The notes below the pieces were generated by a model. The model searched no databases. It saw nothing but the letters and a program-made list of their open reading frames with translations, and was not told the DNA's origin. The translations under genes were made by a program, and so were the position numbers. A stretch of DNA of 64,000 nucleotides. Source: Amphiscolops sp. MND2022 (taxonomy: Eukaryota). Where the stretch lies: positions 23,438,001 through 23,502,000 of the forward strand of contig OZ076409.1 of the NCBI GenBank assembly GCA_964187785.1, given 5' to 3'. Shown piece by piece: positions 17,599 to 64,000 of this stretch; positions within the stretch are counted from its first letter, which is position 1; each line of letters begins with the position of its first letter.

Positions 17599-17921
17599 TA
17601 CAGTAGTGGGAGGAATGTTTCGCACTCCGATTTGTGACAAAAATCGAACGATGTACATAATGTCCAAATGCTCAAAAAAGACAAGGAATTCGGAAAATTG
17701 TCTCCCTACAAGTTTTTGCTATTTCAATTAGGCCATTTTCGTTCAAAATTTTCTGGATCAAATTTCCATGAGTTTGTAAAAATCTTATAACAGTACTTTC
17801 CGTGTTTGAAGTGCTGAAATCTTGTTTAATTCTTGCACTCTATCCTCGACAGTACACCGAGTTGAAAATTTGACAAAACTTGGCGATATTTTTTCAGAGC
17901 TTTATTTCTCCACGAATGATA

Positions 17922-25858: not shown

Positions 25859-26272
25859 GCTACCAGAGCCAGCCTTAGAGCTTTGACAGCTTTCAAAAAA
25901 GTGCGAATCATTTACAGTAAAAGAATCGAACCCCTAAATGATATTAATGTTTCGAACACTCTTTTCGTGCTAGCATCATCATTTAATTTAATCATCAGGA
26001 GAGAAGCATTTGACAAAAGAAGTTCTTGAATTTAATCTACTTTACATTCGTGTTTGTTTGAAAGTTGTTGCTCTATGCTGATATCAATTTCGCAGGTTTC
26101 GATTTTAACAAATCAACAAAAAAACAAGAATTTTTCTGAATTATTCGAAAGTGGCATTCTAAGTACATTCAAGCAGTTCTGCGAGAATCAAGTGGAGCAA
26201 GAGCAGAACCTGTCACTTGATATGAAAGAATTGTTCAGAAACAGTCTTTTGTTGACTGCAGTCGTCTTCAAT

Positions 26273-35411: not shown

Positions 35412-38400
35412 ATGTATAACGAACTATCTCAGTCATTCGCCATGCGAAATGAAGCTATGGCAGGGACTGTTCCAATGGAAGCATCTCTGATGATCTCCGG
35501 AAACTTCAACGTCACCAAGAGGAACCACTCGACTACCCGCAGAGTTGCCACAGCAGTCGTACTTACTCTTCTTAACGTCCTTAACTTCTTTGACAGGTGA
35601 GAAAATGAACGATTTTTTTGGCTCAGAAAAAATGTTTATAAAACAAAAAGAACCGTACGTATCGAAATCACAGGAGTGAGTAAAAAGTTTGTATGGGCGT
35701 ATATTTCAGGCAGAGTAGAAAAGTTTTCGGGTTTCAAAACATTACTCGAGAGTATTTGGATTGAGGACTCCTCAATCCAAATACTCTCGAGTAATGTTTT
35801 GAAACCCGAAAACTTTTCTACTCTGCCTGAAATATACGCCCATACAAACTTTTTACTCACTCCTGTGATTTCGATACGTACGGTTCTTTTTGCTCGGAGC
35901 AAAACCTTTCCACTTTAAAGCTGCGTGTTCAAGGTTTTTCTTGATAACAATGTAAAATTTGTATTTGTTCTTTTTTGTACTGCTGAAAAAGTTCGTGCTT
36001 TATCACAGTTGCCCTTGCAAAGGCCTCTATTTTGGACCATTTCTTGAACTTTCTAAAGCCTTGTGGTGCCTTAAATTTTTTTGCCTAGAATTTAGACTTC
36101 GCGATCTCGCATGCTATCAAAGATTATCACAATTTCGCTGGTAGCTCAAGCGATGAGCATTAAATGAAAGAAAGATCAATCTGTAGATTCTTCTTGACAA
36201 TGACATGTTCTTGCCTGCTACAGATCCATATATGGAGTGGTGCTGCCTCAAATCAAAAAGAACTTCCAGATTGGCAATTCTCAAGCGGGCCTCCTGCAAA
36301 CTATGTTTGTGATAGCGATCATGATTGCGGCTCCCATTGCAGGTGTGATTGGCAGGAAGTACAGCCGGAAGTGGGTGATCATTGCAGGTGCGACCATATG
36401 GGCTGCAGCTGCGATTTTGGGTCCCCTCGTCAACGGGGGAAGCTTCACTACTTTGTGCGTAATAAGAGCTTTCTCTGGAGTTGGTGAAAGTTGTTTGGCC
36501 ACTCTAGGTACGTGAGACCTTACATCTACAACGGCGCTCTTAGGATACGGCTACCAAAAAACGACATTTTTTCCTGGTAAAGGGTTTAAAATTCCTTGTG
36601 CTGAGTGAACTGCAAAAAGAAGCTCAAGCATGTTTTCGTAAACTGGTTAATAGAAGACATTGCATTCATTTTCGTGCTTAAAAATGATCTTGCCGAAATG
36701 TCTTTAGGTTCTAAAAGTCTTCAATAAAGCGATAAGGGTCGTGGGAAGGAGCGATTTTTGATAAAAACGTTTTCAAAACTTTCAAAACAGCTTGGATTTG
36801 TGACGGGAAAATAACTTTCCGAGCTTTGGATACATCTTGTGAAAAAGAAAACACTGAATTACTTTTGAAATACGATGAATATTCTTGAAAAAAAACACGA
36901 TATAAAAAATAGTGTAGACACAATTGTATAAAAACGAACGGATAAGATCACTAAAGCATTAGTGTATGAAAATATCGCAATGGAGTCGTACGAACAAGTT
37001 CAATTTTTTCGTAAGTTTATATTGGAACGTGTAATTTCAGCTGTCACTCTGTTTGCCGACATGTTCAGTGATCGTGTGCGTCCATTAATCCTCAGCATTT
37101 TCATGGGTTCCATTTTACTCGGGGGATCTTTGGCGTACCTGCTGGGGCCCATCGTAACTAAGAATTTGGCGGGTACTTGGGACTTGAAAGGCTGGGTCTG
37201 GGTAACATCGGGAACCGGGGCTGTCGGTGTTGTTTTGATCATACCAGCCATCTTCATCATTCCGGATATTCCAGTGCAACAACTCGCGGTCACTAAAGAT
37301 GTTAGTTAGAGCATATAAAACAAGTAGTGAATGGCTCTTTACGCTCGAAAAACGTTCCTGAATGAAAACAGGGAAAAGAATAAACGGGGAGAGTTCTAAA
37401 GTCGCACAACCGAAAACATCCAAAGAGGGTACCCTTTGATCTTGTCTAGTTTTGCAAAGTTGAAAAATAGACCAGCGCTGGATTCGAACCCAACTCCTGC
37501 TCCCCGGTTTTGCACGCTAGCCAACGGCCAAGCGTCGCGAATCAATGAACGAAATTATTTGTAAAAAAGGACTTCGCTGTAAACTGAAGAAAAAATTAAC
37601 AAATGAAAAACTAGCCACTGTAAGAGTCTGTTCTTTTTTCAAAAAGGCGCCGACTAAAAGCAAACCTTAAAGTAAACTGAGAATAATGTCGCGACTTTTT
37701 GTATAGACCTGTGCTTTGGTTTCAGACCACAGTCAAAGATGACGTGCTGTATCTGTTGAGGAACAAAACTTACATCATCACCCTTCTGGGATACACTTGC
37801 TTTTCCTTCTCCCTGGGTATGCTTGTTATTTTCCGTCCATATTTCATATGGGAAAGGAAAATATTTAAATCAAACGGGTTTTTTCTACAAAATTTGCCAA
37901 GAATTATTGTTTACGTAATATGAAGAAGTACATTCACAGAATTCAACTGACATAAATTTAGTTCCATGCGATATGTATTTGTAAAGATTTTTGGACTTAA
38001 AACGATTTTGTTGCTCAAATGATTTGGGGCGGAAAATATCCCGCTGGTCCGCGGGCGTCTTGTTTAAAATTTTAACCAGACATTCCCTTTACTTCGATAG
38101 TTTTTTTGTACGTTTTTACAGAAATCAGGAAGGAAACTTTCAAGGAACAAACATTGATGCATTTAAAAATTATCATTCAAACAAGACACCTGTTGAGCAC
38201 CGTGATATTTTTCGCCCTCGAATATTTTTAGCAACGACGTATTCTAAGGCTTGTGCGCAGCCAATAAACGTATGCCAACGAAAAATTTCAGGAAACTTCA
38301 GTTTGATAATTTTGACAGTTTTTTTTTCTAAATCAAATTTTTCTTCGGATCCACGCTCAGGAACTCACTGTTTTGTCGTTGAATTCTTTGGATATTCATG

Positions 38401-44400: not shown

Positions 44401-45056
44401 GAAATGTCTTGTGTACAAAATGTCCGTTTTCTATTTAGAACCAAACGTCCGTGTACGAAATGTCCGGTTTTTGGCCATTGTACGAAACGTACTGTGTACG
44501 AATTGTCGTGGTGCCATGCCTGGTAATGGTTTTCTTTGATGAGCGGGAATTGAAACTTGTATTGAAATTTTTCAACTTTTTGCTCAAACCTAGAGCAAGA
44601 GCACTTGATTTTGAAGGTTTCAACGGTTAAAACAAATTTTGTTAGAAGTTGAGTATGCTTCTTCCAGATGAAGATAGAAGTTTCAGATTTTCTTCAAGTT
44701 TATTAGCCGCGGCTTCAATCCCATGTGAATACAATGTTGGATGTTCTTTTTCTGTGTTAACAGGATCTCTCTACTTAATAGCGGCTATTTTCATGCCAGG
44801 CGACATGCAAAAAATGAGAGAAATGACCCATCAACCCAAGAGGACGAAGTCAAAGCACACACAGCAACCAAAAGACAATCCAAGTGTCGCTTTTGCCAGA
44901 CAAACGGACCAAAACGGCCAGTACAGAAGATCCAGCAGTGGAGGGGGAGTAGTGGAATTACCCCCAGCGGCTGCAAGTGGCAATAAAAACAAGCCTGAAG
45001 ACCTATTTGTGCCTCTGGACGAAAGTGACTCAGAGCAGCACCATGGGTACAACTGA
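35412..45056 (+). CDS. Spinster-family (SPNS-like) MFS transporter, 7 exons, ~550 aa
   Basis: Exons 35412-35596, 36224-36507, 37041-37300, 37726-37816, 38879-39145, 43891-44163, 44764-45056 (1653 nt; all GT-AG, phases consistent). Motifs: LLNVLNFFDR, QAGLLQTMF, IRAFSGVGES, LFADMF, DDVLYLLRNKTY, AHLLGDGFSPTVLGTLSD. Start codon choice is uncertain. Confidence 0.88.
35644..35892. repeat. Perfect 249-bp palindrome (124-bp arms, 1-nt loop)
   Basis: Arms are exact reverse complements around C35768 (…ttgagga-c-tcctcaa…). The + and - ORF translations mirror each other. Confidence 0.97.
38591..38662. repeat. Exact 36-bp tandem duplication
   Basis: agacaaaatttgggaatgaaacgccggctgaaagat occurs twice in tandem. 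Confidence 0.9.
39419..40175 (-). mobile_element. Family A Helentron-like element
   Basis: On the + strand: aacaagccaggacctgctcaagtcggc ... aagtctgctc...agcgccgactgaaaa. Confidence 0.6.
40227..41407 (-). mobile_element. Two nested family A elements (inner copy 40720-41355)
   Basis: Two AACAA-ccgggaccggccc-agtcggcgcc termini (40227, 40720) and two consecutive tagtcgcg...gcgccgactaa termini (ending ~41355 and ~41407). Confidence 0.7.
44195..44515. mobile_element. Foldback/Mutator-like MITE in Spinster intron 6 (duplicated at 47230-47550)
   Basis: TIRs cgtaccacgacaattcgtaca / tgtacgaattgtcgtggtgcc with internal ggacatttcgtaca subrepeats. Degenerate 9-bp TSD atgccttgc / atgcctggt. Confidence 0.75.
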
Positions 45057-46925
45057 TGACGTCATATCAAGACTCCAATATTACTTTTCAGAGATGAATG
45101 CCAAAATTTTAGATTGGAAATTTTGAATTGTTAGAGTTGTTAAAGAAGATGAAGAAAATATTCGAAGCCAGCTGCTTCCTAATACTTTTTTTCAACATTA
45201 GTCTAAAAAAATCTCGAATTGTTTATGCATGGGAATAAAGAGATTGTTCGACCATTCTTGTTGAAATTCACTCTTGCTGGTAAGAATTTTAAGTTGTTTA
45301 TGTTAATTTACATAAAACAGCTCTTATTTCAGAATTTGAGAGTGAGCCTAATAAATAAACTCAGGACCAACTAACTGAGATCAGTTAAACCAATTTTAAA
45401 TGCAAAGTTGAGCTCCTCTGAAAACGCTTAAGGGAAATGTGTAATGTGTAGACTCCAAAACTATCGAGGAAAAAGCAGCCGACCCGCATCGATTTGTAAT
45501 GTGTCCTTGGTAGACGCGCTTTGCAAGCCATGAGTAACTCTAAATTCAACGTTCCAAGGCAGTATCGTGTCCTTATCCTGAACACGACAACGTTTCCTCA
45601 TCGGTTCACGTTTCAAACGTCCTCATAATTCAACGTCCTAATCTTCTTAACCAACAAGTATTCAGAAAAATTGTTCATAACGCGAACAAAAAATCAAATA
45701 TTGATTTTAAAGAACTTTTTGAAAAACTTCAGGTGTTTCCGTAAGACCACTGAATCTGCAATTTTCTGTCATTGAATTATTTAAAAGGAGTATAACAAGA
45801 CAGGAACATCTCAACATTTAAGACTCCAAAAGCGCAAAGTTTTTAGTCGGCGCCTTTTCTATCAAGGAAAAAAGCCAGATTATTACTGTGACTAGTTTTT
45901 TAGTCGGCGCATTTTCGTTTAAGGAAAAAAACGACAATTTTTTTTGTCAGTGACTAGTTTTTTGTCAGATAACAGAATGGACACTTTACAGAAACTATTA
46001 AATTTACTAAACTACTGTACCGGCCAATTCTGGCCTACGGAAACGAATCTACGTTAGTGCAAAAGGTGCAAACTCCCCTGAAGTTTTCCTTTTTTAACGG
46101 AACTTACAAAACCGAACGAGACTAAAGCCCCCTTTATTTTTTAGGCACAGTGAGACTCGAATTTTTTTAATGTCTCCAAAGATTCCCCTTTCAATTTTTG
46201 TGATTTTTTGACACAGAATGGATGGTAAAAAATCCCAAATGGTTCCCCTTTAACATTTTTTGTCACTATGAGACTGTTCAAAACTCTCATTCGATTTTTT
46301 TGAAAATTTTCGAATGTCTTCAAGGGGTCCCCATTCAATTATTTGAAATTTTGCAACACAATGGATTTTGAAAATTGCAAAGTGTCCCCCTTTTCCGTTT
46401 TGGGCACTATCAGACAGTTTCAAAGTTCTCATTTTGAGCTGAAATTAAGATTCCGCAATATTCTGTTCGAATTTTGGACGTGGATGTTCGAATGCGCTAT
46501 ATGTGAGGTTTTGACGTTATATCCGAACTAGATTGCGTTTACTAAGGTGGAGTCGGAGATTCGAAAAAAGCGCCCCTATTTGTCCCAGCACGCTATATCT
46601 GAACTTTTGACGTTATATCCAAACTATAGTGCTTTTTACTTGGGAGGAGGCGTGAGGAAGCAAAAAGCGCTCTCACTTGTCTCAGCACGCAACACTTCAA
46701 CGTCTGAAGCGTTTTCAGAGCACAAAAGGCACCCTTTTGATGTTTTGAAACTGCTTTCTCATAAAAAACGACCCGAGCATATGTTTAAAATTTTGCGTTT
46801 TTTGAGCCTTAAGTAAAGCGACGACTTTAAAAATTCACTGTACCAAATTCCTCGCTGTTTCTGTATTGTTTGATGATATTCAATCTTTTTCAACGAATTT
46901 AACGTGAAATTTTCCTGGGTTTCAG

Positions 46926-48091
46926 CTATGGTCTTCTATGGACTCACGAACGTGACCCTATCTTGTTGGGTGGGAACAACGCACGACATCCTCATGAGTG
47001 TCTCCCCACCCATTGTGAGACCTGTGGCTTCTGGGATGGCCACCCTAGTCGCCCATCTGTTGGGAGACGGTTTCAGCCCCACTGTGCTCGGCACCCTCAG
47101 TGACTCCCTCTTCAGTGGTCACGACAACAACTACCAGGAAAAATTCGATTCCTTACAGGAAGCTTTCTTTTTGGCCGAATTCATATCAACCATTGGAGGT
47201 GAAAAATGATGGTTCTGTATATGCCTTGCCGTACCACGACAATTCGTACATAGGACGTTTCGTACACAAAACGTTTCGCACAAAGTATAAAATCGGACAT
47301 TTCGTACAAAAATAAAATCGGACATTTCGTACACAAGCGGATACAAATTTAGGTAAGCATACGAACAATGTGATTTTACTCATTCAGTGATTATTTTGAA
47401 CTTGGTTTTACCTCATTTCAGTTCAAATTTTGCACGAAATGTCTTGTGTACAAAATGTCCGTTTTCTATTTAGAACCAAACGTCCGTGTACGAAATGTCC
47501 GGTTTTTGGCCATTGTACGAAACGTACTGTGTACGAATTGTCGTGGTGCCATGCCTGGTAATGGTTTTCTTTGATGAGCGGGAATTGAAACTTGTATTGA
47601 AATTTTTCAACTTTTTGCTCAAACCTAGAGCAAGAGCACTTGATTTTGAAGGTTTCAACGGTTAAAACAAATTTTGTTAGAAGTTGAGTATGCTTCTTCC
47701 AGATGAAGATAGAAGTTTCAGATTTTCTTCAAGTTTATTAGCCGCGGCTTCAATCCCATGTGAATACAATGTTGGATGTTCTTTTTCTGTGTTAACAGGA
47801 TCTCTCTACTTAATAGCGGCTATTTTCATGCCAGGCGACATGCAAAAAATGAGAGAAATGACCCATCAACCCAAGAGGACGAAGTCAAAGCACACACAGC
47901 AACCAAAAGACAACCCAAGTGTTGCTTTTGCCAGACAAACGGACCAAAACGGCCAGTACAGAAGATCCAGCAGTGGAGGGGGAGTAGTGGAATTACCCCC
48001 AGCGGCTGCAAGTCGCAATAAAAACAAGGCTGAAGACCTATTTGTGCCTCTGGACGAAAGTGACTCAGATCAGCACCATGGGTACAACTGA
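46926..48091 (+). other. Duplicated terminal exons 6' (46926-47198) and 7' (47799-48091) of the Spinster-like gene
   Basis: Splice sites and frames are intact. Exon 6' is identical in translation; exon 7' has three amino-acid changes (G>R, P>A, E>D). Confidence 0.85.
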
Positions 48092-48874
48092 TGACGTCAT
48101 ATCAAGACTCCAATAATACTTTTCAGAGATGAATGCCAAAATTTTAGATTGGAAATTTTGAATTGATAGAGTTGTTAAAGAAGATGAAGAAAGTATTCGA
48201 AGCCAGCTGCTTCCTAATACTTTTTTTCAACATTAGTCTAAAAAAATCTCGAATTGTTTATGCATGGGAATAAAGAGATTGTTCGACCATTCTTGTTGAA
48301 ATTCACTCTTGCTGGTAAGAATTTTAAGTTGTTTATGTTAATTTACATAAAACAGCTCTTATTTCAGAATTTGAGAGTGAGCCTAATAAATAAAGGCAGG
48401 ACCAACTAACTGAGATCAGTTAAACCAATTTTAAATGCAAAGTTGAGCTCCTCTGAAAACGCTTAAGGGAAATGTGTAATGTGTAGACTCCAAAACTATC
48501 GAGGAAAAAGCAGCCGACCCGCATCGATTTGTAATGTGTCCTTGGTAGACGCGCTTTGCAAGCCATGAGTAACTCTAAATTCAACGTTCCAAGGCAGTAT
48601 CGTGTCCTTATCTTGAACACGACAACGTTTCCTCATCGGTTCACGTTTCAAACGTCCTCATAATTCAACGTCCTACTCTTCTTAACCAACAAGTATTCAG
48701 AAAAATTGTTCATAACGGGAACAAAAAATCAAATATTGATTTTAAAGAACTTTTTGAAAAACTTCAGGTGTTTCCGTAAGAGCACTGAATCTGCAATTTT
48801 CTGTCATTGAATTATTTAAAAGGAGTATAACAAGACAGGAACATCTCAACATTAAAGACTCCAAAAGCGCAAAG

Positions 48875-49882
48875 TTTTTAGTCGGCGCCTTTTCTATCAA
48901 GGAAAAAAGCCAGACTATTACTGTGACTAGTTTTTTAGTCGGCGCATTTTCGTTTAAGGAAAAAAAACGACAATTTTTTTTGTCAGTGACTAGTTTTTTG
49001 TCAGATAACAGAATGGACACTTTACAGAAACTATTAAATTTACTAAACTACTGTACCGGCCAATTCTGGCCTACGGAAACGAATCTACGTTAGTGCAAAA
49101 GGTGCAAACTCCCCTGAAGTTTTCCTTTTTTAACGGAATTTACAAAACCGAACGAGACTAAAGCCCCCTTTATTTTTTAGGCACAGTGAGACTCGAATTT
49201 TTTTAATGTCTCCAAAGATTCCCCTTTCAATTTTTGTGATTTTTTGACACAGAATGGATGGTAAAAAATCCCAAATGGTTCCCCTTTAACATTTTTTGTC
49301 ACTATGAGACTGTTCAAAACTCTCATTCGATTTTTTTGAAAATTTTCGAATGTCTTCAAGGGGTCCCCATTCAATTATTTGAAATTTTGCAACACAATGG
49401 ATTTTGAAAATTGCAAAGTGTCCCCCTTTTCCGTTTTGGGCACTATCAGACAGTTTCAAAGTTCTCATTTTGAGCTGAAATTAAGATTCCGCAATATTCT
49501 GTTCGAATTTTGGACGTGGATGTTCGAATGCGCTATATGTGAGGTTTTGACGTTATATCCGAACTAGATTGCGTTTACTAAGGTGGAGTCGGAGATTCGA
49601 AAAAAGCGCCCCTATTTGTCCCAGCACGCTATATCTGAACTTTTGACGTTATATCCAAACTATAGTGCTTTTTACTTGGGAGGAGGCGTGAGGAAGCAAA
49701 AAGCGCTCTCACTTGTCTCAGCACGCTACACTTCAACGTCTGAAGCGTTTTCAGAGCACAAAAGGCACCCTTTTGATGTTTTGAAACTGCTTTCTCATAA
49801 AAAACGACCCGAGCATATGTTTAAAATTTTGCGTTTTTTGAGCCTTAAGTAAAGCGACGACTTTAAACGTTCCCGTCTTGTT
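48875..49882 (+). mobile_element. Family A Helentron-like element (3'-truncated twin at 45840-46830)
   Basis: Two successive tttttagtcggcgc 5' termini; the 3' end is gcgacgactttaaacgttcccgtcttgtt. Confidence 0.65.
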
Positions 49883-50875: not shown

Positions 50876-50886
50876 TAACATCCAAT

Positions 50887-51622
50887 TGTTACGACTACTA
50901 CACGGGTCATTATTTTGGGTAGAATTAATTCTGACCGATTTTGTAGGAGTATAGAAGCTCCTTGTTTCGTTTTCTGTTTCTTCTACGGAGTTATCTCTTG
51001 CATTTTCCTTCCTTTCAGGTTTTAGAAGTTTCAACATTGCCTTTTAGGACTCTATGAGGAGATTCTTGATCTCGGACGTGATCTCCTCCTTTAAAGATGC
51101 TCTTAAACTCTCCAAAAGGCTATTACTTCTCCTAGGGGATTTTGGTCCCGACGGACCTGCCACGTCGACATCCTGGTTCGGGGAATGAGAATTTTCTACA
51201 GCTATTGGTGAAACAAAACCCTCACTTACGTTATCATCAGCTTCTCGCTGGGTGTTTTTCCTCTTCTGGCTCCTTGTAGCTGAAATTTTTGATGAAGAAA
51301 GTTTGATTTACAAAGATATCAAATATATCTTTCTGGTTTTCAACAAAGTTGAGATTGGAACGAGATTAAAGCAAAAGTTGAGAACAACTGAATTTTACAG
51401 CTCGAAAAGGACTGAGTCCCTTAGCACTAGCAATCCATCATGTTTATACCCTCCTAGCATCATTTGATCACGAATAAACCCCTAATTTTCCTCAAACATC
51501 TTGTCAATTCCTGTATTATCAATGAAAAATTCATTTTGTTCCCAAGTTTGCGTCGACTTTTCGTCAAACTTTGAGACACGACGATTTTAAACTAGTATTA
51601 GTCATCAACCGTGATCATATCA
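50887..51622 (-). repeat. Putative 3' LTR of the Gypsy element
   Basis: Minus-strand sequence runs TGATATG...CGTAACA (imperfect TG..CA inverted termini) and is immediately preceded on the minus strand by a purine-rich tract gggaggaaacgaaaggacgccggaatgaaa (51623-51652). The partner LTR is outside the window, so this is unconfirmed. Confidence 0.5.
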
Positions 51623-53301
51623 TTTCATTCCGGCGTCCTTTCGTTTCCTCCCAGGCATGAAGTAGATATACTTCAGTCTGTCAAACCGGAAATATTTTCT
51701 TATTTTACTGCTTTGGTTTGTAAGAAACTGACGCTGGGATGACGCTGACGTGAACAACTAATACCTGATTTTGAATATTCACTTGGAGAAAATGCTATGA
51801 CTAATATTTTCAACATTGGAATTTCCATTGATGCTAGGAAAGGATAATAGCAAGATTATAGAACTAGCAACATTTTCCAAATTAACTCCACACTGAGTGA
51901 TTATTAATTAACGGAATAAAGGCAACGGAACATTGACGTTTGAATGAATTGGAAAGCTAGATTATTTAATCCGGAATTCTAATCTCGGTCATTGGTATTT
52001 CGACCGAAAGTGCTATTTAGCGACATAATGACGTCAATTTACTATTTACACACGTCAACAACACACTGACAACAGGTATTACTTCACACATATAGTAATA
52101 TTCTTGAACACAAAACATCTGACGACATAACGTCGACACTTCACAAGTTAATCAAAGAAACAAAAACTTCAAAACTTTTTGACACTCAACTTCAGTATTA
52201 CAGAACGTATAGTAGCAACGTAGGTCAATTACTCATGGCCCAATACATATGAGCAATGCTCTTCATCAATTTGATTCAGTACAAAAGTTTTGAATAGGTA
52301 ACTGCTCGATCCTGGAGTGGACAACGACATGCCATCGTCCGAATGAGCAATGTAAGAATTACAACTCATTCATTGGGTAGTATAAAATACGAGAGCACAA
52401 ACATGTAAAAATACGTTTCCAACACGGAAATACCTCCAATCTATCTTATTATGATCATAAATTTGACTTTCATTTATATTACCTGAAAACTTCCATTTCA
52501 GAATGAAATCTTAACGTGGTTTAAACCGGTAATGTCTTATTTGAGGGATGGATGGCGCCGAATTCGAAATCTCTTATCATTTCCCTAGTTAAGTTAGCAT
52601 GCAATTCAAACGCATTCCTTGCACGAGTTCGTTAGAATAATGTTCATTTGTCATTTTGGTTGGAGTAAGATAGCTTATTTCGATGGATTTTGGACGTAAC
52701 GTGGACGTACGCATTAGTAGTAGACTTAGTCTACAAATATAGCGGACGTAGCGTGGACGTAAATTTAGAATGAAATCTAGCTTGCTGCCATAGCTGTGAC
52801 GTCATATCGTCGTCTGATATGGAGTACATTTTAATTGGCTAACTAGTTAGTGACGGAGTGCTGACGTCATGATTATAGTAATATATGAATGTGCCGCTAA
52901 TACTTGTTTACTTAGCAACGAGATATCGTCCTATTCTACACTGATTGCTGTTCAAAATGCAATTAAGTTGTCCTTTCTTAGAAGAGACGTAAATATTTCG
53001 GCGTGCCATGTCAAAGTAATTTCTGTTTTAGATCTGATTGACGTTCTTTCTCAGGGAAGATTTTGGATATGTTTTCATTCAGATCGGTCTATGATCCTTT
53101 ATTCTAGGTGTGTTTTAATTTTTAGTTTTCAGGTGGCGAATGTTCTTTTCTGACGCGACAAAATCGTCTTGCCGGAAATGCGTGAAATCATTTTGGCTTA
53201 TTTTATTTCCTGCTCTCATTTTCATTTAAAATTTGCGCCAAACGGACGTACATTTGTATTTCTAGTCACAGCTTATTAGGTTTTGAAGTTGGAATGTTAG
53301 G

Positions 53302-53976
53302 TTACCATTCCGGGAAGCGTAGCTTGCATCCATGTCCCCTCCCGATTGCAATTCGCCTGCAAGTACATCCTAAACCAGGAGCGGGTTGTGACAGGGCCGC
53401 ACTTCTGGGGAGAACGTTATTCCCAGGATGACGAGGCATGGGCAACAATGTGGGTAATCTCATCCCGAGTTCTGCTGTGACGTTACTACTTCGTATCTCT
53501 TCAAGATCGTTCAGCGGGCTTGTGGTTCTGAAGCTGGTTTTCCTGGGTGTTCCCGTCGGCGTGTTGAAGTAAGAAGTAGAGTCTTCCGTTTCAAGGTATT
53601 CCGCTACTTTACTGCTTGTTATCGTCTTTTCATCGTTTGCCGAAGGTTCTACAACGAATATATCAGAGGACATGCTCTCGTATGGGCTTTCTGGGGAGTT
53701 AGCTATTATTTTCTCAGAACTTTCCGAATGCGGGTATTGTCCCGATTCCACTGTTTCGAAGCTCGTGTAGGATTCGCTAAGTTTCATTCTTTTGCATTCA
53801 GTTTCCAGGGAGTTTAGAGAAAGGTCGAGAAATTCTTTCTCATCTGCAGTAGCTTCCGCCGACGAGTTTAGTACTTCGACAACTATTCTGGGGTATTCTT
53901 TGCTGTCCCTAGGTAACGGGGTGGAAGCTCTTGTGATCTCGCCTTCCTCCTCGCTTGACGATCAACTCGTATACAT
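53302..53976 (-). pseudogene. Ser/Thr/Glu-rich ORF of unknown function
   Basis: The 161-aa ORF extends in frame to an ATG at 53976 with one internal TGA at codon 5. No recognisable domain. Confidence 0.35.
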
Positions 53977-54456
53977 CTAGTAGATTATTCATCTTTTTTA
54001 TGGGATTTCTTTTCTTTGCAACTGTCGTTCGTATTTAATTGTTCCACAATGGATTTCGGATTAATTAGGATTAAGGAGAATATTGGGATAAGTCCCTCCA
54101 TTCTGATTGGTTAACCAATCATTTTAATCCTTTTTAATCCTAAGTGTTGACGTTATGTCAACGTCGCATTTTTATTGGCCTCGAAATAAATTATTTCGTT
54201 TGACCAAAGTTGTCAACGTTTTGCTGACGTCAATTTTGTTAGCCTTTAGCTAACTTCTGAATTTGTCACCGTTTTGATGACGTCATTATAAATTACAGGA
54301 TTAACTCTTAACCCTGATATCTTTTTGTCGACGTTTTGCCGACGTCAATTGCGTTGAAAATTAGCCAACTTTAGGTTTTGTCACCGTTTTGGTGGCATCA
54401 GTTTTCAGTTGTTATTTTCATCTTGAGTTGTTTTTCAGATTTTTTGCTGTTTCTTG

Positions 54457-57350
54457 ATGAGTTCCCGTCCAAATACTCTCCCTATTGTTGATCCTGGAGC
54501 ACAGAGCGGGCGGGAGACTCAGTATTTGTTTTCTGAGGAGATGTGCGCCACAGTGAGGGTGATGATATCTGTCTGCCAGCAACCGGTAGGTTCATCATCC
54601 CTTGATCCATTAGGCTTTTGTGTAGTATACATTTAGCAGTTAGGTCTTTTCTGCCTTTGTATTTCCACAGCTTAGATTTTCTTGACGCGTCGATGATGGA
54701 ATGTGAATTTTGTTTTAGTGTTTGGCGCGACATCTACTGCTCCTTCCGTTCTTGTTGCTTCGTCTAACGGGAATACCGACGAACAGGAAACTGTTGCCGT
54801 TCATTCTGTTCCCCTTGTTTCCTTGACTGGGAATGCTGACGAACAGGATACTGTTGCCGTTCCTTCTGTTCCCGACAATACTTCGTCTGACGTTGTTCGT
54901 GAGACTGTTTGTTCGACTTCTGGATGTCAGGGGATTTTCCAACTTCTTGAAGCAATCGAACCTACTTCAGGGGTTCAGCCACCTGCAGACAAAGCTACTC
55001 CCTCAATGGCAACCCAGCAGGATTCGCGTGCTACTGAAGGGGGTGAAAATCTTCCAACTGCTCATCGTGAAGGCGATGAGGTTTGCCCCCTCCTGAAGGA
55101 GAAGGGACGCCGCAAAAACAGCAGAAACTGGGGTTGACTCGAACAGAAACGTCAGCCCGATTTTCATCTTTTTTTGCCGGATTCACCCAGACAATTCACG
55201 TACTGTCAACGACACGCTCTTCACCTCAAACTGAAGCTGCCCCAGGAGGTAATTCGTCCGGAAAACGTCGTCGTGTGGACTTCGCTATTGGGGGCCAGCA
55301 TAGTCATGGTTGAAAAGTAATGGTTGTTTCGATAATGTTACATGAGGGGGGGGGGGGCGACGTTGTGGCGTTATTGAGTTCCGTTTTCCATAGGTAGTGA
55401 CAGTGATGATTCCGAGGATGTTGCTTTGGCGGAAAAGGCTCAAGGTGTTTCTGCTCTCAGCGGTCTGATCACGTCCGGGGCTGAAGATCCAAGTGTAGAA
55501 TCTCTTGTAACTAGTAAGTGATTTTTTTCGATTTTGTATTTCTTTGAGGGTCTCGGGGTTGGTTTGAGTTCGTGTATTTCTGGGTTGTGTTTTGTTTGTA
55601 GGGTTGCAGGATCTTGTGTCTCGTATGGAAGCGAGCTTAGAAAAAGCAGTGTCGTCTGGGCAACGTGTGCGAAAGTACAGCAGTGGTCATCACTTGAGGA
55701 AAGACATGGTTGGAGATCATCCTTTCCTCAGTGTTTTTGTCAGTGGGTCCAGTACCGGAGTGTCTACCCGTTTTCATTGCATGATCTGTCGGCGTAATGT
55801 AGTCACGTGGGGCAGAAAATTCATTCGCTATTACTCCTCGGACAGACATTGGGAGCGAGATGTTGCTTATCGTTTTCAGAACGATATGTCAACGTATGAT
55901 CGTCAGATGGAGCCCATGGACCTGTCGACTGGACAGCGCGATGAGTATATGAATCGTGAAAAAATTGCCAAGGATGAGGGCTTTAGTTTCCCTGAAGACC
56001 TTTTGCCTAGTTGTACTCGCGTGGGATCTACTGATCCTTTGCTGACATTGGTGAATTGTATCGCTGAACTGTGTCGTTGTGGTGGTAGCTATGTGCTGTT
56101 GCGGAAACTGTGGGGTAATTTCAGGGCTACCCTTGGGCGCGAAGATCCCTTGTACAATCTTCATTGGAATCGCTCCGAGACTTTAGTTAGTATTTTTGGT
56201 ATTGTTAGGAGTTACGTGTAAACGAGGGTGGGTAGGTGTTAAGTGTATTTGGCTGGTTGGTTTTTCTTTTTCTTCTCTTTTTCTTATCATGTGATCTGTT
56301 TTGTTTCAGTCGTTAATTTGTCGTGCTCTTTTTCCTCGAGTCCTTCGATCTATGGTGTCACGAGTTGCAAAATTCGGTCATTACAGTATGACGTTTGAAG
56401 AGCGGTCCGACGGTCAATATTGCTTCGTTCACACGTGGGAAGGCTTCAGAGTTTGTGTGTGAAAATGGAGAAGCTTGATCAGCGTGTGCCACATGCTGAG
56501 TTGTCATCGCTGTCTCGGGTGGTGACGATTTTGCCTTCTGGGTTGATGCCCCTTGGTATCCGTGGTATGAGTCCGTTCCTTTTGCGTGTTGTTAGCGATG
56601 AGCGTTCAGATGGTCGTCGTTTCATCCTTGCTCGGGAATTCTCGTCCGAAGTTTTCCTGCATTGTTATCGTGTGGCACATCAGGAGATCTTTGGAATGCT
56701 GGAAGTGACCACGATGATTGATTTCTTGATGCTCAGATTGCGTGGAGCTTTGCAGGAGCCCTGAATGGAGTGTGACTTTTGACGAGCTTCGTGGAGTTGC
56801 GTCTGATCTCGTGTCTGTGTGAGATACTGTTCGCGAGTACGTTCGATATACTGGTCCACGACATATCAAAAGTTCCTTCGACAAAGTGAGAAAGGTTCTT
56901 CTTTAATTTCTTTTGACCTCATTTTTTGTTTGTTTGTTTTTTTGTTGGCTTGTGCTTCGTTTGACTTTCTTTGTGCGTCTTAGATGCGGGGTACAGATTG
57001 TTTTTTCCTGTGGTATCTACTGTTTCCTTCCTGAGCTGTTGTTAGCGGGGGATGATCAGCGTGTCTTTTAGTTGTTCTCCCGTGTAGTCCGTGTCTTGGA
57101 AAAGAGTGGTAGTTTGACGCCCAGTGTTTCCCGATCCAGCGTGGAGGAATTTAGAACGTTCGTTGTGGATATCCGGAGGCGGCACGTCGAGTCAAGTGTG
57201 AGTGCCGAGAATATCAGCGACGTGGTGACGTAGTGCTAAGCCTTTACGGAGGAGTGGGAGAGGATCTAGCAAGGAGAGCGGCAAAAAGAGTGACGATTCA
57301 TTGTGCGCCAGCGGGAAGAGCTCTGCAAAGAATCGTGCTTCTGGGTCGAA
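54457..57350 (+). pseudogene. Degraded multi-exon gene encoding a zinc-finger protein of unknown family, antisense to Gypsy pol
   Basis: Short GT-AG introns with pyrimidine tracts at 54586-54670, ~55309-55393, 55514-55601, 56186-56309 and 56895-56983. Frames join correctly at 55513/55602 and 56185/56310. Contains FHCMICRRNV..SSDRHW. Frameshifts and stops are present. Confidence 0.6.
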
Positions 57351-57499
57351 GATGTGAACTGTTTCTATAGACGTTTATATGTTTCATTACTCATTGTTGT
57401 TATTGTATTTGTATGATGCTTTTGATTCGTTATTACACTTTGATGAAGTGAAAAAACGAAAGAAGGAAAAAGGTAGTAACAGAAAATGGTAGTTGGGGT

Positions 57500-60400
57500 T
57501 ATAATATGCCTCTAATTAAAATCGTCAGACCGGTTCAGTTTGGACTCTGTATAATAGTTTTCTTTCATTTAGTTCGTCGTAGTCATAGCGTCAAGTCGTC
57601 GAAAGTCAGGATCAGCATTAGGATTAGGGTTAGGCCGCAAGTTATAATTGGCTATTTTTCGCGGGTTATACCCAACAATTGTAGGGGGCGATTTCGGGGA
57701 AATAGGGGGGTTTTCAATGGGTGGGGGCGTCGTTTGTATGGATTATCCCCCACATCTGTAGTAAGCTTTGAAAAATCCGGTGACGACGGCGCGACGTCAT
57801 TTGTGTCTTCAATTTGATTTCTTGGTGTTTGTGACGTCGTCATTTCGTCATTTGTGTTTGTGAGTTTCTGTATTTCTACTTGTTGGTTAGCTTCCGCACT
57901 TTTTGTTGTCTCATGTTCGTCGATATGCTTTCCAAAATCCATTTCCCACGATACTGCGTACCATTCATTGTGTGAAACGTTAACGTCTGGATCTGGTAAA
58001 TAAATATTCGCCAGATCGTACTGTGACGTCAAGCATGCGTTGTTCTGGCAGGTAGGGGCGTATTCGAATTCTGTGTAGCGTCTGTGTGTATCTCGTGCCA
58101 ATTTTTCGTATTGTGTAGTTGTTATTTGGTAGCACCTTTATCACAATATACGGTCCAATCCAAATGCAATCTTGGAACGCAAACTTTGTTGACTGGTTTT
58201 CAGCTTTCGGGTTGAGGATGTAGCAATAGTCATTTACCTTGAGCGGAGCTGCGGATGCTTTTATAATTGAGGTAGGACTGCATGATGTTGTCTTTTGCTG
58301 TGGCGCGGACTTCGTCGATTTGTTTTTGTGGCTGTTCTGCTATATCGGAATTAGGCGTAATCTTCCATTTTGGCTTGATGCCTAGCTTTAGATCTAAGAC
58401 ATTGTAGGGTATGCGTCCATGGAATACCGTATATGGCTCACAGCCTAATGTTTCATGATATGTTGTGTTGTAGTTCATTACGGCGATATGGACATATTTG
58501 TGCCACATTGAACGTTTTTCGCCCCTCGATATTTTTAGAGCAATTATATTTGAAGCGTGTGTTCTTTCCCAGATTCCAATAGTTTGTGCATGCTTCGTTG
58601 ACGCGTGGCTGATTTGGATTTCGAGTATTTGAGTTATTTCTGCGACGACTTCTGATCGGAATTGCGATCCCTTATCCGATAAGATTAGTGTTGGTAAATA
58701 TGCGTGTCTTGTCATGACATCGACGATACATCACTGTGACATTCTGCGTTGGGTATGCGAATAGGTAGCGTGAAAATACATCAATCATCGTGACAATGTT
58801 TTGGTGTCCTGCAGAGTTTGGAAAATTCGGCAGTATGTCGATTTCTAGGATATCTTCCGGACACAAGACGTGTTCCGTATTGTTGATCATTTTCGGTCTG
58901 ATTTGGTTGTTGTTGATTCTTTTGTACTTGATGCAGTCCTCGCATTGCATTACCCACTGTTTTATTTTTTTTTGCTAATCCGGGGTAATAATATTTTGAT
59001 CTGCGTTCTTGGATCAATTTCGTGATCCCTGGTTGTTTTCTCATTTGTCCATGAATTGCTTTCAAAAGTTCTGTGTTCAAATGTTCGAGGATTAATATTT
59101 GATGGTGAGTGACTTGGCCACATTCCCCGTAGTATTTGCCCATTAGGATGCCATCTTTGACTAATAATATATTTTCATGGACTAGGAGACGCTTGGCTGT
59201 CGGATCAATTTGTAGGAGGTGTTTGTCGTTTTCTTCGCATATTAGTTTCCTTTTGATTGCTTTGAAGACTAGGTTTGAGTCTTGTTCCACTCTGATGCGC
59301 GCGTCTTCTTTTATTGCCCCAAAGGTGTAAGATGCCTTGTTTATCGGGATTGGGGTTGTCTCTTTGATGGCAAATTTTATTTTTGTCGTCTCTTCGTCGC
59401 GCGCATCTTGTCTAGCTTGTTCCTTTTGCAGGAGGATTTCTTTCTCAGTTTCAATTGTTTCGTCTGGGAGGAAGAAAAGTTGTTCCTCATCTGCGACATC
59501 TGTGGATTGTAAGTTCACTTGTATTGGTCGAATTATGATGTCATCTCTGATCTTTAGTTCGACACTTCCTTTGGGGTTGAGGTCTATTCTTGATAAGAAG
59601 TCCGCCGCAGTATTGTGCGTTCCCGCTACATGCATGATGTGAAAATTGAATTGTAGCACGTAGTCACATGCGTTCCATAGTGTGGGAGGGATCGCTTTGG
59701 TTTGGAAAAACCTCGTTACCGACCTGTTGTCGGCCATCACGAGAGTTGGTAGGGTTGTATCCCAAAGACTATGGCTGTATTCTAGGAAGGCGGGATAGAT
59801 TGCCAAAAATTCCTTGCAGTAAATGGACATTTTTAGCTGTGCTGGGGAAAACACTTTTGATATGAATGCAACTGGGGCGAAAGTTTTCTTTTTTGAGTTG
59901 AGTTTTTTGTCGCTATCCTCCTCGATCATTAGCGCATAGCGTGATGCTCGGAAGCTGGCGTCCTTCATTAGGACGTATTGGCGTCCTGTGATTGGCTGTT
60001 TCAGGGCTAATCCACAGGCTTCCGCTAGTGTTGCGTTGATCGCTTTGTAGTGGTCGAGTGTCTCATCGCTGTTTTGGAGCGATTTGGCCATGGGCCTTTA
60101 CTGAGTTCACAGCAAAATCCATCAGATCAGTGAACAACGATCATGCAAAAAGAATCACATCATCGACCCGCCCCATAAATGACAGGTGGGACCGTGCGTC
60201 GTCAATCCGTGCGCCATTACTCAGAAGATTTGCAGAAGTGTACCTTCTAGTACCCATCAAATTAACGTTGGTTACAGAAGCATCGACGTCTACTCGGCAT
60301 TGGGCTGCCATGAACATGGTACGTACCTTTTACCAGCCCCCAATACCAGAAAAGTATCTTTACCATGATCAGTAGTGGTGGCATCGACCCAAATGTCACT

Positions 60401-63400
60401 GAGCTTTTTTGCACTTCAATCACACACTCACAATACAAATACAACCACAATTGACTTAGGAAGATCTGATAGTGAAGAAGGTTTGTTTATAAAGGTTTTC
60501 CCCCTCCTTCCAGATGAACCTTGTCCCGGAAAGCATCTCCACGAAGAGAGTACCTTTCACCAACAAGTTCACTGACTTCAAGACAATGATGTGTTTTGAC
60601 AGAAAATTGCGAATTCCGAAGAAGCTGAGATGGGATCATACCCCGATTCTCATTTAAGGACTGTGCAGGTAATTTTTAAGTCTTCCCTGTTGTCAGGACT
60701 CTTGAGGCTTTAGTTCCAGGCATTGTCTACTGAGCAACCGTAGTTGACACTTAACAGTAGCACTCATACGCTGGTGACAGCTCTGCCGGGAATGCTAGCA
60801 CTCGAAAACAGAACTTTCATTCCACTCGTGAAGGCAACCTCGAACAGAGCCAGTCGTCGAGTAGTTCTTCTGTCACTTTGATTTGCTTGTCCGCTTTCAA
60901 AAGTTCAAAGAACCCAAGCAACTTTTCAGACAACCTCGGGATGTAGTTGCGGTAATAATTGACAAAACCGATGTTTCGTTGTACTTTCTTCTTTGATTTT
61001 GGAAATCTCACGTTTGCCAGGATTTTTTGTATTTTATGATCCTGGGGGGCAATTCCTGTGGTTTGATTGTTCTTCCGAGGAATTTGACTTTAGTTACTCC
61101 GAAGTGGCATTTGTCAATGGATAGTTTGAGTCCTGCTTGTCTGATGCATTCGAAGACGGCTCGGATGTTCCGTATCATTTGCGTCACAGAATTGGCTGCA
61201 ATTCCATATCGTCCACATATTGCGCACACTGGTCAACTTTGATTAGTTTATCCAAGTATTCTCTCATGAAGCTTGAAAATGCAGACAAGGCTCTGCTCAG
61301 TCCTTGTGCTAAGCGTTTGTAGGCAAACGTCCAGCTTGCGAAGTTGAAAGCTAACATTTCAATTGACCTCTGGTCAGCCATTTGTAGGCAATGATATGCC
61401 TGAGAGCAATCTAGTTTGCAAAACAACTTTTTACCAGCTAGGTGTTGGGCTGCGTCTGACAGGGTGCTGACTGTATGATTGTTGTTGATGTAATCATTTG
61501 AGATCAATGCGTTTATTTTTCGTAGGTCGACAAGTAGACGTAACTTGCCGTTTGGCTTTCGCTGTGCGAAGATTGGACTTGCATATTTTGAAATTTATAG
61601 GGTCGTTATTATGCCGTGCCTGTGCATTAGTGCCAATTCAACAGTTAGGTCCTCTTTCAAGTTTATTGGTACTGGCAGGCTTTGCATATAAATTGGACGC
61701 TCGTCCTTCGGAATTAGTTTCACTTTGAAATTGTTGTTGATTCCATTGTCCAGTCGATGACGCGCAAAGATGTCGTTTTATTCGACTATTGTTTGTTCAA
61801 GTTGCTTTCTGTCGTTGCCTTCAATTTGAGAGCCTTCCCATTGGAACATGTCAAGAAATTTCTTTCTTGATTCTTGGTCGTTTGTTGGGTCTAAGTCTTC
61901 TTTCTTGATGAGCTCACGTATTTCCTTCAGTATTCGTCGTTGTATTGGCGTATGTTTGGCTTCATTTCCTGGGTTTTCAGGTGTGGGGAACCAGAGGTTC
62001 TCATCATTTTGTTCTGTTTCACTGGATTTCATGAGTTCGTTTAGATACATGTGTGTGTCATCAGGGTCTTCTAGCAGTTTGAGTGCAGCGGCGTCAACTG
62101 GTCGAATTTGTTTCGTGTCTTCAGGTTTGAGGATTTGTAGTTCCGCCAGTTTTGTATGGTTCTTTATTGTGTGAGGGAAGTCCGTCAAGTTGGCGATTCT
62201 GATGTTGAGTCTTTTATTGTAGGCGGTCGCTAACGCTGGTGCTACGATGATTGTCGCTGTTTCGTCGAATAGTGGTAGTTGTTGTACCGCACCAGTGACG
62301 TCATTCAAGTTTGTGGTGATTACTATCGCGTTCACTGTTGTTGTTTGTTGGAGTAACAGCGTTTGATACCCTTCTGCCATTATTTGAAGCGTTTTTGGAT
62401 TGCAATTTTTCATTTTGTCTGTCATAGCTAATGTCATTTCGACGTGTGGGAAATTGATTGTCCCATTGGCTGTGTCAATTACTGCCTGGTGGTTTCTCAT
62501 GAAATTCAGTCCTATGATTGGAAATAACGTTTTCGATAGGATGACGAATGTGTCCGTGAAGGTGTATGTTCCAATGTTGAATTGGATGTCCGCTGTGGCT
62601 ATGGGTTGCTCTAATTGTGCGTTTGCGCATTCAATTTTGAAAGAGGGTTGAGGGTACTCCTCTATCACTATTCATTTTGATTGCATTATAATCTGACCAG
62701 GACATGACGTTGATGAACGCGCCTGAGTCAACGAGTCCATCCATTGTTATTTCGCCAAATTCAAGTGGCAAATACAGCATTCTGCGTCGTTTCTTGAGTA
62801 CTATGGTCGAATGAAGTGGTATGCATGTTTCTCTTTCTCGATTACGTACTCTTTAATTGAATTAAGTGAGGCGGGGAAGTCGTCTGGGAAGATAGGTATC
62901 TTGGTGGAGCCGTTAGTATTTTCCTTAGTTGGTTGAGACGGTGATTGATCGCGGGGGCGTTTTCGTTTTGTTCTACTTGTGTTGCGATGGACTGTTCTGT
63001 GATGATGGGGGAGCGCTAGTCAGGAAGGTTCATGTGTTGTTTATGGTCGCCTCTGTAGTCTTTATCTTGGGTGTAAAGTTTTCTTTGTTCGATTTGTGGA
63101 TGTGGTTTTCTTATAGAGGCGATTGCTTGTCGTCTCGGCCAATCCTCCGTTGGGGTGCCATTGCATTCGATTGTTGTATCATTTCCGTATGTGGTAGGGG
63201 GACCATCCGTTGAATACGCCCTCGCGTCTACTGTTTCCCCGAAGCGCAGGCGCGGCGTAATTAGTTTTTTGAGTCGTCGACAGAAGTAGCTGTCGTTGGT
63301 TGGACGGAGTTATCCGTCTTTCGTTCTTGTGTAGGATGACGCTCAGGTCGCGGATCATTGGCAGAGTTGGCTCCATTCCAGCAACCGTTTTGTGTGGTTT

Positions 63401-64000
63401 GCGGCAAGCGTCGCATTTGAGCGGTCTGCCTGTACTGTTGTTAGCTTGTCCGTTATTTTTCCTGGTTTGCAGCCATTTAGATCGTTTCATTTTCCTGCAT
63501 TCGGCTTTGAAGTGCCCAAATTTAATGCAATAGAAGCAGTATTCTGTTTTGGTGTTCTGCGTAGTGTTTTCACCTTGCTTCAGCTCATTTTTCGTTTGGG
63601 TTGGTTCTATTTTATTTAGGGGTATCAGAGTCACCTCGTCCGGCGCTCCAAGGCCGTTAAGCCGCATTTCTCTTTCTAAGTGGAGCACTATATCGTTATA
63701 GGGTTTGTCCTCAAGGTACGCTCTATTGAGTATTTTCTTGGCGTGATCGGGCATTTTCGCGAAAATTGCCTTCTCAATGAATTGTTGGGCTTCCGATCCA
63801 AAGGCCTCTTTTGCTGTTTTTTGGAGTACATTCAAAATTTTGTGGAGTTTTTGTGTCGAGGGATCGAGTTTATGCGCGTCCCATTCACATCTGGCTTTTG
63901 CCATTGACAAGTAGTGGCCAAATCGACGCTTGAAAATTGTCATTATTTTGTCTAACGAGTCTTTTTTTGAGTCCTCTATATTGCAGAACGCTTGCAGGGC
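57500..64000 (-). mobile_element. Degenerate Ty3/Gypsy LTR retrotransposon gag-pol
   Basis: Minus-strand order: gag with CFYCIKFGHFKAEC knuckle (63179-63943), protease LVDSGA (~62725), RT (KLDCSQAYH, LAQGLS, YVDD; ~60860-61750), RNase H (KDASF, CKEFLAI, DNRSV, NTAADFLSR), integrase (H..C..C, LSDKGSQF, WIGPY). PR-RT-RH-INT is the Gypsy order. Many disabling mutations; runs off the window end. Confidence 0.95.
60060..60855. mobile_element. Unclassified ~796-bp insertion interrupting Gypsy pol
   Basis: The pol peptide VTEELLD|HYKAINATL is split, and gtcgagt is duplicated at 60053-60059 and 60856-60862. Confidence 0.8.

Follow-up and report, generated by a model that had tools for sequence, protein, structure and literature searches.

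An intron-containing antisense gene with a predicted hAT transposase fold in a Gypsy retrotransposon of Amphiscolops

Where would a retrotransposon obtain a gene with introns, and what would such a gene do for it? The question is raised by a eukaryotic, repeat-rich stretch of 64,000 nucleotides from Amphiscolops sp. MND2022 (contig OZ076409.1, positions 23,438,001 to 23,502,000), here called the window. Its minus strand carries a degenerate Gypsy element, and between the pol stop codon of this element and its polypurine tract (PPT) and long terminal repeat (LTR; 50887-51622) lies a plus-strand gene, which we located at 54457-57357. A first-pass annotation of the sequence had placed the gene there, with the integrase ending at about 57500; the pol tail stops at 57569 instead. 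Where the antisense extra genes of LTR retrotransposons come from and what they do are posed as open questions (PMC7264820, PMC11963269). On balance, we lean toward reading the gene as a long-standing antisense accessory gene of a Gypsy lineage, a probable hAT transposase by descent, predicted to be disarmed, whose product may today regulate the element by binding DNA in the nucleus.

Exons, introns and relatives of the antisense gene

A search with exon 4 (55604-56185) recovered 121 homolog clusters at E ≤ 1e-3 among 158 candidates, and the clusters listed all derive from ENA assemblies. The largest hold up to 166, 77, 63, 59 and 52 members, sizes that are loose because one cluster contains non-overlapping exons. 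Clustering at 50% identity gave 185 representatives, and the set used for the fusion search and the tree below comprises 485 proteins. Some subfamilies are young, since one and the same protein occurs unchanged on 10 contigs. The four C2H2 finger ligands (C, C, H, H) are kept in 304 of 357 homologs, while Pfam finds no zf-BED match in exons or homologs. Two natural homologs, P0184 and P0325, are intact and have the whole transposase-like body, about 550 amino acids beyond the finger.

From the sequence and these homologs we predict five GT-AG introns of 85-133 nt, named A to E. Similarity to homologs ceases at the predicted splice sites. At intron D (56186-56309), 276 of the 283 homologs that reach the exon end go on with valine, the GT of the donor, and 261 continue as VS, VR or VG, which is the translated donor; nine homologs lack the intron and pass straight into the sequence of the next exon. 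Intron C (55514-55601) is backed by the read-through homologs P0100, P0136 and P0206, intron B by P0001 and the donor of intron E by P0264, P0341 and P0483. The first-pass annotation had counted at least five short GT-AG introns. For intron A there is no homolog support, and the frame is kept there only through a weaker donor at 54590. The acidic low-complexity N-terminus that it described is found in exon 2, with exon 3 acidic as well, and the motifs FHCMICRRNV..SSDRHW and FGHYSMTFEERSDG are both present.

The gene in the window is real, but this copy is a pseudogene, a point that the annotation had missed. It has three frameshifts and a premature stop (Table 1), its finger has a three-codon gap and has lost one His, and it lacks approximately amino acids 450-578 and 665-850 of the 890-amino-acid homolog P0184.

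Some relatives have fewer introns. A quick tree built from 92 of the 485 proteins gathers the intron-less forms in a single branch of eight rows (two of them classed by eye) with a Shimodaira-Hasegawa-like approximate likelihood ratio test (SH-aLRT) support of 97. This branch is nested inside the intron-bearing forms, which suggests intron loss. P0184, P0325 and their relatives lack intron D and the introns downstream of it and apparently keep an upstream one; such a 3′-biased absence is typical of loss mediated by complementary DNA (cDNA).

Predicted fold and catalytic site

What kind of protein does this gene encode? Pfam assigns neither the exons nor the homologs to any family above cut-off. 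Those ESM Atlas rows that carry a family name (FAM200/ZBED5, DUF4371, DUF659 and Dimer_Tnp_hAT, at 0.81-0.84) serve weakly, as a lead for a hAT origin only. Structural comparison was run on the natural homolog P0184. A model of its amino acids 242-794, built from a 31-row alignment (predicted local distance difference test, or pLDDT, 49.6; predicted TM score, or pTM, 0.27), has three strands, a helix, a strand, a helix and a strand, followed by a long helical region. With this model, Foldseek places Hermes transposase chains in all of the top 10 positions (E 2.7e-4 to 3.4e-3), and the next family follows at 2.9e-2. VIA-align gives Hermes a Z of 6.9-7.3 over 194-244 residues, with a root mean square deviation (rmsd) of 7.6-8.2; the core, model residues 6-120 on Hermes 145-264, superposes over 105 residues with an rmsd of 3.1. 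Only Hermes aligns into the helical region, and most other rows cover 74-103 residues. The RNase H core plus helical insertion domain of the hAT superfamily is thus present, with moderate support, in a low-confidence model. Against viral structures, Foldseek found nothing under E 1e-3, and a Pandoravirus hAT protein ranked fifth (E 0.024). These data make it quite probable that the gene descends from a hAT transposase, and the derivation from a DNA transposase suggested by the first-pass annotation gains from them. The order of predicted parts, from the C2H2 finger and the helical domain through the RNase H core and its helical insertion to the C-terminal region, matches that of Hermes and other hAT proteins.

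The active site tells a different story from the fold. The catalytic residues of Hermes are D180, D248 and E572 (PMC6027215). At the inferred second site, the two positions that end strand 4, Asp occurs in none of 15 homologs. The inferred first site, at the end of strand 1, varies among K, Q, E and M, with an Asp nearby in 2 of 18, and the CxxH position reads FxxE/D. The D, D, E of an active hAT enzyme is therefore not found at the inferred positions. By this mapping, the strand that had been likened to FSLxxDESTD of hAT transposases belongs to a degenerate active site and not to a functional one. If the protein is of hAT origin, it is very probably catalytically dead. With the Asp sites gone and the finger kept, the family looks like a disarmed transposase that has retained its predicted DNA-binding end. 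It differs from Hermes and other hAT transposases in the unkept catalytic Asp and CxxH positions and in having no terminal inverted repeats (TIRs).

Cargo of the Gypsy lineage

The element around the gene is broken. Its minus-strand gag-pol enters from beyond 64000 and is interrupted by stops and frameshifts; the gag sequence may resemble that of elements from acoel worms. Pfam detects RVT_1 (E 2.4e-12) and RT_RNaseH (E 1.3e-9) and, below cut-off, Integrase_H2C2, rve, Integrase_p58_C and zf-CCHC. The order is that of Ty3/Gypsy, gag and then reverse transcriptase (RT), RNase H and integrase, the integrase domains lying below the Pfam cut-off; no protease was detected by Pfam in gag-pol. The repeat at 50887-51622 fits the 3′ LTR of this element because a PPT, as purine rich as only 0.2% of the element's 30-mers, adjoins its TG..CA sequence as in Ty3/Gypsy elements, and because its left flank resembles a host repeat (11127-11180) only up to about 10 bp short of the TG. 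The 5′ partner would lie outside the window, beyond 64000. We rejected the same repeat as the 5′ LTR of a plus-strand element: there is no TGG-type primer-binding site at 51623, and the PPT is on the opposite strand. Separately, an insertion of about 800 bp (60059-60855), possibly a solo LTR or a small transposon, interrupts the RT-RNase H connection; GTCGAG is duplicated on both sides of it, and it does not have the strand skew of the element.

Is the gene part of the element? Gene callers read through deletion junctions of decayed copies, so fused open reading frames (ORFs) can serve as signs of linkage. We compared the 485 homologous proteins with the element after masking the gene, using 10 shuffles as a control (best E 0.009). 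Ten matches were obtained at E ≤ 0.05, seven of them at the shuffle level and three far beyond it, and these three fused proteins are all in the window's orientation. In P0343, which is 58% identical and sits on a distant branch, exon 4 with its intron runs into the antisense zinc-binding motif of integrase (E 1.4e-8), in the window's order. P0135 (55%) joins cargo at 53178-53252 to the exon (E 2.3e-8), also in the window's order, although this fusion says nothing on a link with pol. In P0336, antisense RT is fused to the exon (E 3e-5), again in the same orientation.

The composition of silent sites offers an independent kind of sign. At fourfold sites, A/(A+T) on the coding strand is 0.21 in the gene, 0.75 in gag-pol and 0.48 in an unrelated control ORF; read on the retroelement strand, the value for the gene is 0.79. 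Its silent sites thus carry the strand bias of the retroelement, which indirectly indicates copying by reverse transcription together with the element. The bias sits at third positions, where T is 0.39-0.52 versus 0.16-0.26 at positions 1 and 2. Distant homologs have a matching amino-acid tilt (VFCWG/TKNHQP 1.2-1.4 versus 0.4-0.5 in controls), which is a weaker sign than the fourfold bias. Own TIRs and a target-site duplication (TSD), as expected of a nested DNA transposon, were looked for at the window copy, whose old ends could have decayed; among 75 candidates, no TIR pair with an 8-bp duplication was better than 5/8. Furthermore, a family that has no catalytic site could not spread as an autonomous DNA transposon. 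Together, the chimeras, the strand bias, the missing TIR/TSD pair and the lost catalytic residues make it a good probability that the gene is cargo of the Gypsy family, and indirectly uphold the accessory gene proposed in the first-pass annotation.

How could such an arrangement have arisen? A hAT transposon would have inserted antisense into an ancestral element, in the region from pol to the 3′ LTR, and the ends of the transposon would then have been lost. The gene would have been copied by reverse transcription along with the element, as the strand bias and chimeras indirectly suggest, and its introns would persist because the packaged genomic RNA, which is reverse transcribed, is the strand opposite to the gene. 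Transcription may start from an internal promoter at 53977-54456, common to the gene and to the divergent ORF B described below. The protein keeps an acidic N-terminus, basic patch, C2H2 finger and helical domain. Bound to DNA of the element itself, it would promote transcription or counter silencing. We slightly favor such a regulatory role over any other. The broadest statement of this proposal, to which we give an even chance, is that an animal Gypsy lineage domesticated a DNA transposase and carries it, as an antisense gene that is spliced, in a cassette of two genes, that the disarmed protein works on the element's own DNA as an anti-silencing factor or integration tether, and that one sub-lineage lost its 3′ introns, plausibly through its own reverse transcriptase.

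The main rival to self-regulation accepts the same cargo and origin and differs in the job: the protein would tether the integration complex to target DNA, or bind and escort cDNA ends through the end-binding fold of the transposase. The transposase-like body kept in P0184 and P0325 exceeds what a simple transcription factor needs, and nuclear import or transposition roles have been proposed for antisense aORFs (PMC7264820). The acidic N-terminus and the TGACGTCA motifs, which resemble the cyclic AMP response element (CRE) and cluster in cargo and intergenic DNA, fit transcriptional control better, and we consider tethering unlikely, if worth keeping in mind. Less likely again is that an independent hAT-like DNA transposon family exists and that the window copy merely landed in a Gypsy element. 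A transposase fold, introns and hundreds of copies are all compatible with this, nesting is common in the window (an insertion splits the RT), and linkage to Gypsy rests on few chimeras. Yet no examined subfamily keeps the catalytic Asp positions, the window copy has no TIR/TSD pair, the silent sites have the retroelement's bias, and antisense integrase is fused, in the order seen in the window, to a relative with 58% identity.

The broken state of the window copy and of many homologous ORFs could instead mean that the gene is a neutral passenger of the Gypsy lineage, or is kept for an antisense RNA, with no function for the protein; antisense RNA roles have been proposed for other elements (PMC7264820). 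The persistence of finger ligands (304/357) and of the intron D donor (276/283) across 25-60% identity speaks against this, as does a strand bias limited to third positions, which is expected under selection on protein, and we find it improbable. Domesticated, inactive hAT proteins are common as host genes, and the ESM Atlas rows are of FAM200/ZBED type, so a ZBED/FAM200-like host gene family might have been transduced into this one element. Such a history is very improbable given the many young, near-identical copies and decayed copies across many subfamilies and the lack of any named host protein among the cluster members examined.

Several results count against a hAT-derived cargo gene. PDB sequence searches gave nothing meaningful, and neither they nor Pfam named a hAT family. 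The full-length P0184 model (pLDDT 53) had no fold match, which means that the well-predicted N-terminal domain is without a structural match of its own; the model of amino acids 242-794 is of low confidence, and its VIA-align Z for Hermes is tied with generic RNase H folds. The catalytic positions were mapped by strand order and known Hermes motifs, not by residue-level alignment, in 15 homologs that represent only about six subfamilies, and the likely third site has an acidic residue in 13 of 14 homologs. As for linkage, only two chimeras, P0343 and P0336, touch pol; in P0336 the RT precedes the exon, opposite to their order in the window, and a few fusions could come from independent insertions in an LTR-rich genome. 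Scans of viral and metagenome contigs revealed no related second locus. A GTDB match (27%, E 1e-4) was taken as chance.

Neighboring features and known systems

The remaining cargo includes a second ORF, absent from the first-pass annotation. This ORF B diverges from the accessory gene and has a stop at the fifth codon after its ATG, followed by 219 open codons (53302-53961), a length reached in none of 2000 shuffles. Pfam gave it no family and the ESM Atlas no usable match. Its fourfold A/(A+T) is 0.51, without the bias of the gene and gag-pol. The 480-bp spacer between the two genes contains a 76-nt duplication (54210-54285 / 54325-54400) and two TGACGTCA sites. Of the 10 sites of this motif in the window, seven are in the element, with about one expected in the whole window, and five are within 2.4 kb of cargo and intergenic DNA; we presume that they may be host CREB/ATF sites rather than targets of the accessory protein. 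An env-like cargo was ruled out by the antisense orientation and the nuclear-type domain set.

Table 1. Coordinates of the Gypsy element and its cargo in the window
Feature	Position	Strand	Remarks
3′ LTR, 736 bp, TG..CA read on minus strand	50887-51622	-	flank similarity to host repeat ends near 50877
Polypurine tract, 30-mer, 83% purine	51623-51652	-	adjoins LTR
Non-coding cargo rich in TGACGTCA/ACGT motifs	51653-53301	.	53178-53252 common to the copy behind P0135
ORF B, Ser/Glu/Thr-rich, S/T-P motifs	53302-53976	- (sense to element)	ATG 53976
Divergent intergenic region, candidate two-way promoter	53977-54456	.	480 bp
Exon 1 (predicted, without homolog support)	54457-54589	+	frame
Exon 2, acidic low-complexity region and KRRR basic patch	54719-55308	+	frameshift near 55085; third-position T 0.52
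Exon 3, acidic	55394-55513	+	homologs P0001, P0100, P0136, P0206
Exon 4, C2H2 (BED-like) finger and conserved helical domain	55602-56185	+	finger damaged in window copy
Exon 5, predicted RNase H-like core and beginning of helical insertion domain	56310-56894	+	frameshifts near 56440 and 56765
Last exon remnant, matches P0184 amino acids 579-650, then stop near 57070, then basic tail	56984-57357	+	large parts missing
Gypsy gag-pol, degenerate (gag, RT, RNase H, integrase, tail)	57569-64000	-	continues past window edge

Elsewhere in the window, a tandem array of about ten 794-bp units with 95-100% identity occupies approximately 17830-25860, and a near-perfect direct duplication (99%) lies at 44966-46831 and 48001-49867, about 3035 bp apart. 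An uninterrupted plus-strand ORF of 791 codons (11980-14355) with C2H2 fingers and a PHD finger lies between the arms of a dispersed inverted repeat family (11178-11295 / 15844-15961) and may be a transposon-borne gene. A perfect 124-bp inverted repeat with a 1-nt spacer (35644-35892) is directly upstream of exons of a major facilitator superfamily (MFS) transporter (36204-37306). Also present, at 8695-9000, 9729-10409, 30738-31488 and 4235-4603, are fragments of a transposase like that of IS1595/Merlin, of two further reverse transcriptases and of a chromo/Tudor-knot domain.

Plant Tat/Retand Gypsy elements (Grande gene23, RIRE2, Retand) and fungal Boty are known to carry antisense ORFs in the interval from pol to the 3′ LTR (PMC7264820, PMC11963269). 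The gene described here has the position that defines this aORF-3R class, in a region of about 6 kb that compares with 2.9-6.6 kb in Retand, and for both an own internal promoter and a nuclear, DNA-binding role have been proposed. A review calls the function of antisense aORFs unknown and their origin from insertion of a transposable element (TE) unsupported (PMC7264820). The present family suggests such an origin for one of them. Unlike the plant aORFs, it has multiple introns and a predicted hAT DDE-type fold, and Pfam finds no match to TRP28 (PF04195), the Retand/Tat domain, or to any other plant aORF domain in exons or homologs. The arrangement is thus already known; the transposase-derived content and the introns appear to be new.

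Other LTR elements offer partial parallels. HBZ of HTLV-1 is spliced, and HBZ and APH-2 of HTLV-2 are small bZIP-type proteins driven from the 3′ LTR. They are antisense regulatory genes of an LTR element with nuclear products (PMC11963269), as is predicted for the accessory gene, which is unrelated to them in sequence and origin. The plant mobile domain (PMD) is an accessory domain common to Gypsy and MULE elements, inferred to have been captured by MULEs from host genes and suspected of a silencing or anti-silencing role (PMC5418596). Here, too, a domain occurs in both a Gypsy lineage and DNA transposons, but it is the transposase that seems to have entered the retrotransposon. Among animals, Gypsy-like elements that acquired cargo include those with bdelloid ORF3s (PMC5408684) and planarian Burro (PMC6431247), whose cargo, in the parts available, is named as env, esterase, exonuclease or apoptosis/ubiquitin domains, not transposase; AlkB is another captured domain (PMC9289625). 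The text covered of PMC12477816 and PMC9911081 describes no such element, and the literature covered, acoel-directed work included and with Repbase, subscription papers and supplements outside its scope, holds no LTR element with an antisense gene that is spliced and derived from a transposase. In contrast to ZBED, FAM200 and GTF2IRD2, the transposase would here have been domesticated by a retrotransposon and not by the host.

Hosts domesticate transposases to control transposons; here, a transposon itself appears to have domesticated one. If this is true, a class I element has taken a class II enzyme as an accessory protein. Through this family, an antisense extra gene can be traced to a probable origin, a hAT transposase, and has a product, predicted to bind DNA, that can be tested. 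Its intron-rich and intron-poor subfamilies are a natural test of cDNA-mediated intron loss. Spliced antisense cargo of this kind escapes ORF-based annotation of LTR elements and would be miscalled as host ZBED-like genes.

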